A stretch of DNA of 64,000 nucleotides. Source: Escherichia coli. GTDB taxonomy: Bacteria > Pseudomonadota > Gammaproteobacteria > Enterobacterales > Enterobacteriaceae. The translations under genes and the position numbers were made by a program. The stretch is from NCBI RefSeq assembly GCF_013315695.1, contig NZ_CP054353.1, one strand, 5' to 3'. Below the pieces are notes generated by a model. The model was not told where the DNA came from and searched no databases. It worked only from the letters and a program-made list of their open reading frames with translations. Numbering within the stretch: position 1 is the first letter of the stretch; every line of letters begins with the position of its first letter. This document shows, in pieces, positions 446-50,512 of this stretch.

Positions 446-464
446 TTAAATAACCTTAATAAAA

Positions 465-490
465 ATGCCGACGTTATGTCGGCATTTTTT
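465..490 (+). terminator. rho-independent terminator of pgi
   Basis: Inverted repeat atgccgac-gtta-tgtcggcat followed directly by a T-run. Confidence 0.8.
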
Positions 491-797
491 ATCAGATAAA
501 TCCCCTTGTCTGTGATTTAACGGAAATCATACCGTGAGGTTAATCCTAAAATAGATTTTTAATCGTGATTGATTTCGGAAAATACGCAGAGTAATTACTT
601 TTATTTTTATTTTAAGCTTATGATTTTTAGTGCTATTTATATATAAGCTGAAGCTTATATTTGATATTCATTCCAATTATCCTAAAACCCCATCACTAAT
701 TCCCCGCGCCGTAATTCGCATGCTTTAGTTGTGTATACTCGATCCCGCCCGAAATGTTTTGGGTAAATCTCCATTCATTCAATGAAGGGAAATTGTT

Positions 798-1040
798 ATG
801 AAAAAAGTTCTGTATGGCATTTTTGCCATATCTGCGCTTGCGGCGACTTCTGCGTGGGCTGCACCTGTACAGGTGGGCGAAGCGGCAGGATCGGCAGCAA
901 CGTCGGTTTCGGCGGGTAGTTCCTCCGCGACCAGCGTCAGCACCGTAAGCTCGGCGGTGGGTGTCGCGCTCGCGGCAACCGGTGGCGGTGATGGTTCTAA
1001 TACCGGGACCACCACAACCACGACCACCAGTACCCAGTAA
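798..1040 (+). CDS. yjbE: small secreted Ser/Thr/Gly-rich protein, first gene of the yjbEFGH exopolysaccharide operon
   Basis: 80-aa ORF with signal peptide [21 protein letters not shown] and a low-complexity S/T/G/A body; position after pgi matches K-12. Confidence 0.85.
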
Positions 1041-32138: not shown

Positions 32139-32360
32139 TGCAGGAAAGCAGGCTGGAGCTACCCAGCCTGCAGTGAAATTAAACTGTCGTCGCTTTCACT
32201 CTTGCTTTATAGATGATTTTTTTGATGCCATCGTTTTACGTGAGGGATAATAAAAGGTTGTCAGTTCTTTTATTGTTAAGTTTATCCCAATTATCTGGAA
32301 TTCCTTTCCCTGTTTTTTCGTGTGGAGTAATAATTTTTGCACATCTAACCATTATTAAAT

Positions 32361-32903
32361 TTAATAATAAGTATCGGGTTTGTTACGATAGAATATTTCT
32401 ATATCCTCAAGAATATGCTTTGCCTTATTGCCTGTGACTTTCTGAGATTCAATTATAGTATCGTTAAATTCTAATGTTAAAGAGAACTCTTTTTTTCCGC
32501 TTTGTGTAAGTTTAACCTTATATTGATTACCAATATCAAATAAAAAGGTCCTGTAATGAGAATAATCACCTTTAACCTCCTCGGCAAAACAGCAAAGTGT
32601 GCAAATATACATACAATCTTTCTTGCCTCTGATTTTGTTAACTAAATCAATAAATGCATGAAAAACTGTACTTGCAATAGAACTTGATACTTCTTCTCCA
32701 GGTCTACAAAAATCTTTTGCAATTTTTAACTGTGTTTCTATATATAAAAAGAAATCTTTGGCATAAGAAAAATCTTTGGAATAAGAGATATCTTTATTAT
32801 TTAGTGCATCTAGCTCAACAGGTAAAGATGTCATTTTGTTGCTATTCACATATGATATATTCATATCATCATCTCCTTCGAGAGTAATAAAATTAGTCAC
32901 CAT
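32361..32903 (-). CDS. AT-rich hypothetical protein between tyrB and aphA
   Basis: 180-aa ORF, strongly AT-rich; no family recognised; sits where K-12 carries the short gene yjbS. Confidence 0.5.
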   Translation of the reverse strand: MVTNFITLEGDDDMNISYVNSNKMTSLPVELDALNNKDISYSKDFSYAKDFFLYIETQLKIAKDFCRPGEEVSSSIASTVFHAFIDLVNKIRGKKDCMYICTLCCFAEEVKGDYSHYRTFLFDIGNQYKVKLTQSGKKEFSLTLEFNDTIIESQKVTGNKAKHILEDIEIFYRNKPDTYY

Positions 32904-50105: not shown

Positions 50106-50512
50106 ATATTAACTGTTCCATAGTGTAAAACCTGACTTAGCAAAGGTTATCATACTAGTCTTTGTACTGTAAGCACACTTGGTTTAATTCCACGCACTTT
50201 TTGAGATTTCCGGTTTTTTGATCTCTTACCAAAATCTATGCCAGATTGAATCAAAGGTCCGAGCTGGGTCACCAAAAAAAGTAAAATTATGCACTTTGAT
50301 AGATTATATTTTAACTAAATTCTTTACAGTTAAATCATTTCTTATGCCTTAGTTTCTGATAAAAAAGGTTTTTTTTCACGATTTATAAGTATCAGGTTAT
50401 GTGAACCGTTCTGATTTGTCGTTAAAACAATAGGTTATATTGTTTTAAGGTGGATGATTAAAGCATCTGCCAGCCATAAAAAAGAAGCCTCCGTTTTGGA
50501 GGCTTCTACATA

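Follow-up and report, generated by a model that had tools for sequence, protein, structure and literature searches.

A palindrome confined to Escherichia coli lies in the AT-rich spacer of the yjbEFGH promoter and is probably incidental to a phased arrangement of candidate Rcs boxes and an IHF-like site

The DNA analyzed here, a stretch of 64,000 nucleotides from Escherichia coli (the window), opens with the last 445 bases of pgi and continues, as read from the sequence and its open reading frames, into the 352-bp intergenic region between pgi and yjbE (446-797). Open reading frames for pgi, yjbE, yjbF, yjbG, and yjbH are all present, with yjbF, yjbG, and yjbH following yjbE. The identity of the locus is given by a 100% DNA match to E. 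coli sequences annotated with pgi and yjb genes, and the intergenic DNA has matches in 5,422 of 5,426 complete E. coli genomes, with annotated pgi and yjbE on its flanks. The first-pass annotation, which described an inverted repeat upstream of the yjbEFGH operon, had therefore placed it at the right locus, as judged from the reading frames and from the matches to annotated E. coli DNA. Its description of the leader before yjbE as AT-rich is likewise borne out: positions 590-700 are 77% A+T, and the AT-rich stretch contains 18 TpA steps and several T-tracts. The features of the region are collected in the table below.

Features of the pgi–yjbE intergenic region and its borders (positions in the window; strand given where assigned)
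Feature	Positions	Strand	Sequence	Basis or remark
RF02053 match (STnc430, Salmonella sRNA candidate)	454-602	-		Rfam match over the full length of the model, 84.1 bits against a gathering score of 47
pgi terminator hairpin	461-489		AAAAATGCCGAC-GTTAT-GTCGGCATTTTT	inverted-repeat search
Candidate box Z	492-505	+	TCAGATAAATCCCC	RcsB/RcsAB-box-like; 1 mismatch to RcsB consensus; conserved block
Candidate box A	535-548	+	TGAGGTTAATCCTA, then AAAT	best RcsAB-box match in the region
Candidate box B	575-588	-	TGCGTATTTTCCGA	RcsAB-box-like, in the opposite orientation to box A; constant distance to the -10
Upstream repeat copy	612-621		TTAAGCTTAT	inverted- and direct-repeat search
IHF-consensus-like core	613-625	-	AATCATAAGCTTA	1 mismatch to WATCAANNNNTTR
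AT-rich spacer with palindrome	626-670			length and composition conserved, sequence free; low information content
Palindrome	641-660		ATATAAGCT-GA-AGCTTATAT	inverted-repeat search; 20 bp, perfect 9+9
Candidate box C	671-684	+	TTCCAATTATCCTA, then AAAC	conserved in right half-site only
Probable -10	734-739	+	TATACT	within invariant block TTGTGTATACTCGA
yjbE	798-1040	+		first gene of yjbEFGH; open reading frame and annotation of identical proteins

Much of the regulation of this operon has been described. RcsA-RcsB activates yjbEFGH (PMC5651002; PMC5461412), and the operon is osmotically induced (PMC5461412; also a preprint). Its promoter region has been reported to hold two promoters, two RcsAB sites, and one IHF site, given without coordinates, and shows a dip in ParB ChIP-seq that disappears when the region is deleted (PMC6238139). 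No yjbE promoter constructs were found by a literature phrase search.

Strains differ in what separates pgi from its terminator. In K-12, ST131, and O157, a REP/BIME-type insert of about 144 bp lies between the pgi stop codon and the terminator (457-600 of the K-12 locus sequence); it is absent at the 445/446 junction of the window, and missing from the window lineage, AF3, and 13E0767. In Escherichia whittamii, the equivalent of the insert matches Rfam naRNA4. What had seemed a coordinate oddity, in that pgi ends 144 bp ahead of the match in some strains, was traced to this real REP-type insertion. The annotation of the bovine strain E. coli E2863 lists yjbE as a pseudogene with a frameshift.

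The near-perfect inverted repeat that had been claimed is present, and takes the form of a perfect 9+9 palindrome together with a third, upstream copy of the same sequence. The arms of the palindrome (641-649 and 652-660) are 9 nt long, 100% complementary, and separated by a 2-nt spacer. The upstream copy pairs with 643-652 over 10 nt at 90% complementarity; 21 nt lie between the two, rather than the roughly 25 bp of A/T that had been noted. The window reads ATAAGCT at 643-649, with G at 650, and the 8-mer AAGCTTAT at 614-621, followed by GA at 622-623, recurs at 651-658 as a direct repeat 37 bp apart. At 613-620, TAAGCTTA is palindromic on its own.

The chance of such a structure was estimated with dinucleotide-preserving shuffles. 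A repeat with perfect arms of 9 nt or more and a loop no longer than 12 nt occurred in 5% of shuffles of 446-797, 3.4% for 500-797, and 2.1% for 590-700, giving P of about 0.02-0.05 according to the region shuffled. The palindrome is mildly unusual for one region and unremarkable across the thousands of intergenic regions in a genome. About 20 distinct inverted repeats of equal strength occur in the 64-kb window, most of which look like terminators, judging from their G+C-rich stems. At the palindrome, the stem is AT-rich and lacks a terminator-like tail, and a terminator scan made no call; Rfam returned zero matches over 603-700. As a single-stranded DNA hairpin, the palindrome folds at -4.4 kcal/mol in the window allele and -2.6 kcal/mol in the K-12 allele, better than its shuffles (z = -3.1).

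A multi-copy repeat of the REP/BIME or MITE type was also sought, and the sequence was found in exactly one place per genome across 5,418 E. coli genomes. A regulon-like recurrence of the pattern ATAAG-N6-CTTAT was considered and rejected, the palindrome having one copy per genome in E. coli. Within the window there are six matches to it at one mismatch or fewer, against about two expected; among the five other than the palindrome itself, those at 32413 and 32506 lie inside an open reading frame in locally AT-rich DNA. Further AT-rich perfect palindromes occur in the window at 32351-32368 (ATTATTAAATTTAATAAT, which adjoins an AT-rich open reading frame at 32361-32903 on the minus strand) and at 50422-50448 (TTAAAACAATA-GGTTA-TATTGTTTTAA). 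A plus-strand promoter with TTGATT (620-625) as its -35 and the TATAAG of the palindrome as its -10 was rejected for lack of conservation; -10-like hexamers 16-18 bp from TTGATT were not enriched in 77 species, and a consensus scan for such a promoter was also empty.

Conservation was assessed from 80 loci, one genome per species, which were retrieved by alignment of YjbF; yjbE was located in 78 of them, and 300 bases upstream of yjbE were aligned for 77 sequences. In this alignment, the information content of 641-660 is 0.24-0.55 bits per position, the lowest of the region, compared with 1.3-2.0 in the conserved blocks. The pattern TAAG-N6-CTTA was found in none of 78 other species, and among the 77 species compared the palindrome is confined to E. 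coli. A palindrome held in place while its sequence diverges was also considered and rejected: the best arms in the orthologous spacers of the 77 species average 4.84 nt against 4.56 nt when shuffled, a negligible excess, and their centers are scattered. Palindromes reaching p <= 0.05 occur in the spacers of eight of the 77 species, where about four are expected. Other palindromes, different in sequence and in center, are found in the spacer of some genera, such as TTTATTTAAT-TATTT-ATTAAATAAA in Salmonella arizonae and ATTATTAATTAATAAT in Citrobacter werkmanii. Palindromes thus seem to come and go in this low-complexity spacer, with none kept in place. What is kept is the spacer itself: 589-670 averages 79% A+T in the 77 species, and its length is preserved while its sequence drifts.

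Variation within E. coli was examined by aligning the window with 18 other E. coli (16 chosen at roughly even steps of similarity rank, plus the two best matches) and one Escherichia whittamii. The pgi–yjbE intergenic region is unusually diverse for E. coli, with most genomes 90-95% identical to the window; at least 99% identity over 446-797 was reached by only 7 genomes (of 5,422). Over 632-669, 175 of 5,418 E. coli genomes are identical to the window, and each has this allele in single copy. Variable sites cluster at 586-653, the most polymorphic part, which includes the upstream copy and the center of the palindrome; almost none fall between 654 and yjbE. The outer arms, ATATA(A/G)G...CTTATAT, are kept among the E. 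coli alleles, as is everything to their right. The center is GCT-GA-AGC in the window type, GTT-GA-AAC in the K-12 type, GTC-AA-AGC in ST131, and GTT-GT-AGC in two further types, among them the O157 type, which also carries AGG in the left arm. The K-12 allele, AAATATAAGTT-GA-AACTTATATTT, has 11-nt arms (P about 0.005), and the palindrome is imperfect in 7 of the 18 sampled E. coli genomes. The upstream copy differs in almost every E. coli haplotype (AAGTTTAT, AACTTCAT, AACACTAT, AACATTAT).

One base pair of the palindrome deserves separate mention. Positions 648/653 are C:G in the window and T:A in K-12, both of which complete a perfect palindrome, and T:G in three divergent haplotypes. The two perfect alleles beside T:G resemble compensatory change and could reflect selection for symmetry. 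The statistical weight of this pattern is small, because each perfect allele is a single transition away from T:G. Template switching at quasi-palindromes, a well-established source of mutations in bacteria, would by itself yield two perfect alleles in the absence of selection.

The conserved part of the region lies elsewhere. The RcsB box has the consensus TN(G/A)GAN4TC(T/C)NA, with (A/C)CTNA as a lower-affinity variant of its right half (PMC7913699); TCCTAAAAT is given as the canonical RcsB right half-site in a recent preprint, which lists yjbE among candidate osmotic-shock targets. In MG1655, the RcsAB boxes read TAAGGATTATCCGA-AAAA upstream of rcsA and TAAAGAAACTCCTA-AAAAC upstream of wza. 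Box A carries one mismatch to the RcsB consensus in the window and in 76 of 76 species, matches both the RcsAB box and the rcsA box at 10 of 14 positions, and has the right half TCCTAAAA in common with the rcsA and wza boxes. Box B has two mismatches to the RcsB consensus and matches the rcsA box at 10 of 14 positions; one or two mismatches are found at its position in 71 of 72 species. Box Z, which in Salmonella reads TAAGATAATTCCGC, lies 43-44 bp upstream of box A, at 44 bp in 52 of 57 species. Boxes Z, A, and B each combine a match to the consensus and conservation with a place upstream of an RcsAB-dependent promoter. By consensus match and conservation, Z, A, B, and C are candidate RcsB/RcsAB sites.

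Downstream of the boxes, positions 729-741 are invariant in 77 species. Their conservation and position suggest that the TATACT within them is the probable -10 element, with transcription starting near 746. A simple promoter scan of the region reported no promoter, TATACT included; a weak -35 is expected of an activator-dependent promoter. Directly after the putative start, a leader hairpin, GCCCGAAA..TTTTGGG, occupies 747-763 and shows apparent compensatory changes in other genera (CCCG/TGGG versus CCTG/CAGG). It is followed at 766-794 by a nearly invariant block, TCTCCATTCATTCAATGAAGGGAAATTG, which contains an inverted repeat of the Shine-Dalgarno sequence GAAGGGA against the upstream TCCATTCATT and may be a translational control element. 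Farther downstream, in the gap between yjbE and yjbF, a perfect hairpin with 10-nt arms (ATAACCACAC-TCCG-GTGTGGTTAT, 1108-1131) that no T-run follows may serve as an RNA stabilizer or processing site; a sub-threshold isrH-like match lies near it at 1054-1100.

The spacing of the boxes was measured by a search for half-site motifs that was carried out independently of the alignment, with distances taken from the block TTGTGTATACTCGA. Relative to the -10, TCYKWAA occurs in forward orientation at -54, TTWMRGA in reverse orientation at -161, and TCYKWAA again in forward orientation at -201, all nearly fixed. The half-site at -54 is that of box C, and it lies at -43 in the Citrobacter freundii group. 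This is one of three deletions of about 11 bp, which have occurred independently in three spacers and three clades: the A–B spacing is 29 rather than 40 in Escherichia, the B–C spacing is 96 rather than 107 in seven species, and the distance from box C to the -10 is 43 rather than 54 in the C. freundii group. All other distances are fixed within 1-2 bp. Where sites have to face the same side of the DNA, indels of whole helical turns are their hallmark, and the steps of about 11 bp observed here read as a clear helical-phasing signature for the boxes and the -10.

Between boxes B and C, a second kind of site can be recognized. The core listed in the table is the only match to the IHF consensus at one mismatch or fewer in 446-797. 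At the aligned position, the core is perfect in 18 of 77 species and has at most one mismatch in 50 (47 in the same orientation), counts that are inflated by the relatedness of the species; the corresponding figures are 0.4 and 7.4 for shuffles of the same 27-mers, and 0-1 and 5-6 for flanking AT-rich segments. The only semi-conserved bases in the repeat region are TAA (613-615) and TGAT (621-624), which are specified positions of the IHF consensus. The AAGC of the upstream repeat copy falls in the unspecified N4 positions of the core, where species vary. On the 5' side of the core, in the orientation of the site, 626-645 (TTTAGTGCTATTTATATATA) is A/T at 17 of 20 positions by direct count, such that both a core match and an A/T-rich 5' element are found at this place. 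The distance from the core to box C is 59-60 bp in 64 of 77 species. The consensus match and its conservation point to a putative IHF site at 613-625 on the minus strand.

Based on these data, a model of the promoter can be proposed in which four RcsB/RcsAB-type boxes (Z, A, B, and C), an IHF-like site, and the -10 TATACT would be held at fixed helical phase. Phosphorylated RcsB together with RcsA would bind the upstream boxes, and IHF at 613-625 would bend the intervening AT-rich DNA, thereby bringing the upstream Rcs complex to the promoter-proximal half-site (box C) and RNA polymerase. For 626-670, length, phase, and A+T content would matter rather than sequence, with 626-645 serving as the A/T-rich 5' element of the IHF site. 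In such an arrangement, the palindrome is probably an incidental, E. coli–specific passenger in the phased AT-rich spacer of an RcsAB/IHF-type yjbEFGH promoter. AT-rich DNA of low complexity would have given rise to it in passing, and ordinary transitions, or template switching at quasi-palindromes, could have improved its symmetry; the upstream copy would coincide with the IHF-like core in its flanking bases only.

The proposal that the repeat is a site for a dimeric regulator or for the nucleoid proteins H-NS or IHF is thus upheld in part. An IHF-like core does overlap the upstream copy, whereas the palindrome itself is the least conserved part of the region. RcsB and IHF are plausible regulators here, in that the region has been described as containing RcsAB and IHF sites (PMC6238139), yet the candidate Rcs boxes lie off the repeat, at 492-588 and 671-684. 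For H-NS, nucleation at the repeat is not borne out by its high-affinity motif, TCGATAAATT, which has no good match in 446-797 (best, 7 of 10 positions).

A role for H-NS can nonetheless be formulated at the level of the whole AT-rich segment, and it is a possibility that we would hold only tentatively: 590-670, including the repeat, would form an H-NS-bound or curved silencing region that is overcome by Rcs activation, as at rcsA. The base composition (77% A+T here, with a mean of 79% in 77 species), a conserved length with free sequence, the 18 TpA steps, and several T-tracts would all suit such a region, and a promoter with similar boxes, that of rcsA, is described as having H-NS bound to a curved region upstream (cited in PMC11879457). 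The poor match to TCGATAAATT, at best 7 of 10, argues against it, and a literature search found no H-NS binding data for yjbE. Moreover, it would make the composition functional, not the inverted repeat. A role for H-NS is compatible with the phased RcsAB/IHF-type promoter and does not exclude it; what speaks for it is base composition, and H-NS binding at the repeat would be a generic possibility for AT-rich DNA.

A different function for the same segment is suggested by the RF02053 match on the opposite strand, and we consider it unlikely. Here, about 603-640 would be the promoter of the STnc430 candidate RNA, running from 602 to 454, with the repeat within or just upstream of it. The match extends over the full length of the model, scores well over the gathering score, and has a syntenic counterpart in 12 of 20 other species scanned; a -10-like TAAAAT (614 to 609) lies 7 nt upstream of the first base of the model, and positions 614, 613, and 609 are among the better conserved of the spacer. 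No -35 is recognizable or conserved, however, and the promoter spacer, which is not expected to be conserved, would contain the conserved TTGAT (621-625). RNAalifold finds almost no conserved structure in the STnc430 region (-1.5 kcal/mol, 6 pairs), boxes Z, A, and B fully explain the conservation of the matched region, and no literature support for STnc430 expression was found. Since the blocks that are conserved are those of boxes Z, A, and B, and structure is close to nil, the STnc430 family may capture conserved promoter DNA and not an RNA.

Decidedly unlikely, in our assessment, is that the palindrome serves as a functional E. coli–specific operator for a dimeric regulator, be it an additional weak RcsB/RcsAB site or a site for another helix-turn-helix protein. 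Its arms are perfect in two alleles that carry changes on both sides, and its chance probability is 0.005-0.05. The 14-mer at 644-657 (TAAGCTGAAGCTTA) has two mismatches to the RcsB consensus (A5 to C and T10 to G; 8 of 14 identities), as many as the genuine wza box, and in our reading the right half ACTTA of the K-12 allele, TAAGTTGAAACTTA, fits the lower-affinity (A/C)CTNA (PMC7913699). Both mismatches, however, fall within the specified GA and TC triplets. Among 74 species, the equivalent 14-mer differs from the RcsB consensus at 4-7 positions in 67 and at three or fewer in six, so that no RcsB box is conserved at 644-657 across orthologous enterobacterial promoters. The palindrome is absent outside E. 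coli and imperfect in 7 of 18 sampled E. coli genomes, and it occurs in single copy per genome, and therefore lacks regulon-like recurrence. Finally, with box C about 27 bp and box B 69 bp from its center, the palindrome is out of helical phase with the conserved boxes.

It is very improbable that the palindrome represents a recent, E. coli–specific control element laid over an ancient RcsAB/IHF loop, whether as a weak RcsB site or as a supercoiling-sensitive structure. If it did, the two perfect alleles would have been derived by selection, not mutation bias, from an ancestor with the imperfect T:G, and exopolysaccharide induction would be tuned between lineages by their natural alleles. We find it scarcely credible that the palindrome acts by structure, whether as a cruciform under osmotic-stress supercoiling or, in a transcript begun farther upstream, as an RNA hairpin. 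In its favor are the osmotic induction of yjbEFGH (PMC5461412; preprint), the allelic changes in the E. coli arms, all of which leave pairing on the plus strand G-U compatible (T:G at 648/653 and G:T at 646/655), and the better folding of the hairpin than of its shuffles (z = -3.1). Against it, the stem is weak (-4.4 kcal/mol as DNA in the window, -2.6 in K-12), at 9-11 nt the arms are on the short side for a cruciform to extrude, there is neither a conserved plus-strand promoter upstream nor a terminator-like tail, and the feature is not conserved in other genera.

Taken by itself, the finding of the palindrome matters little: the regulatory system of yjbEFGH is already known, with the suggested regulators linked to the yjbE promoter in the literature, and the palindrome adds little to it. 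The useful outcome is a corrected map of the promoter, with candidate Rcs boxes at 492-505, 535-548, 575-588, and 671-684 and a putative IHF core at 613-625. Together with this map, the spacing pattern leads to a concrete model in which a looped complex, with its sites in phase, would activate an Rcs-dependent exopolysaccharide promoter.

STnc430 (RF02053) matches the adjacent 454-602 on the opposite strand, and the repeat lies outside the match. As in known IHF sites, the core at 613-625 is accompanied by an A/T-rich tract on the expected side; the upstream repeat copy would contribute only flanks to this core, and the palindrome at 641-660 would touch no more than the edge of the footprint expected for IHF. 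The rcsA promoter resembles that of yjbE in that multiple Rcs boxes adjoin an AT-rich stretch in an Rcs-activated gene. It has two RcsAB boxes and an H-NS-bound curved upstream region, whereas yjbE lacks the H-NS high-affinity motif. With the RcsAB/RcsB box (TaAGaatatTCctA) of wza/cps and rcsA, the yjbE boxes share the same TCC(T/G)AAAA right half and flank. The 14-mer of the palindrome has the same outer TAAG...CTTA symmetry as these boxes but is without the GA and TC bases of their core at positions 5 and 10; it matches at only 8 of 14 positions and is not conserved.
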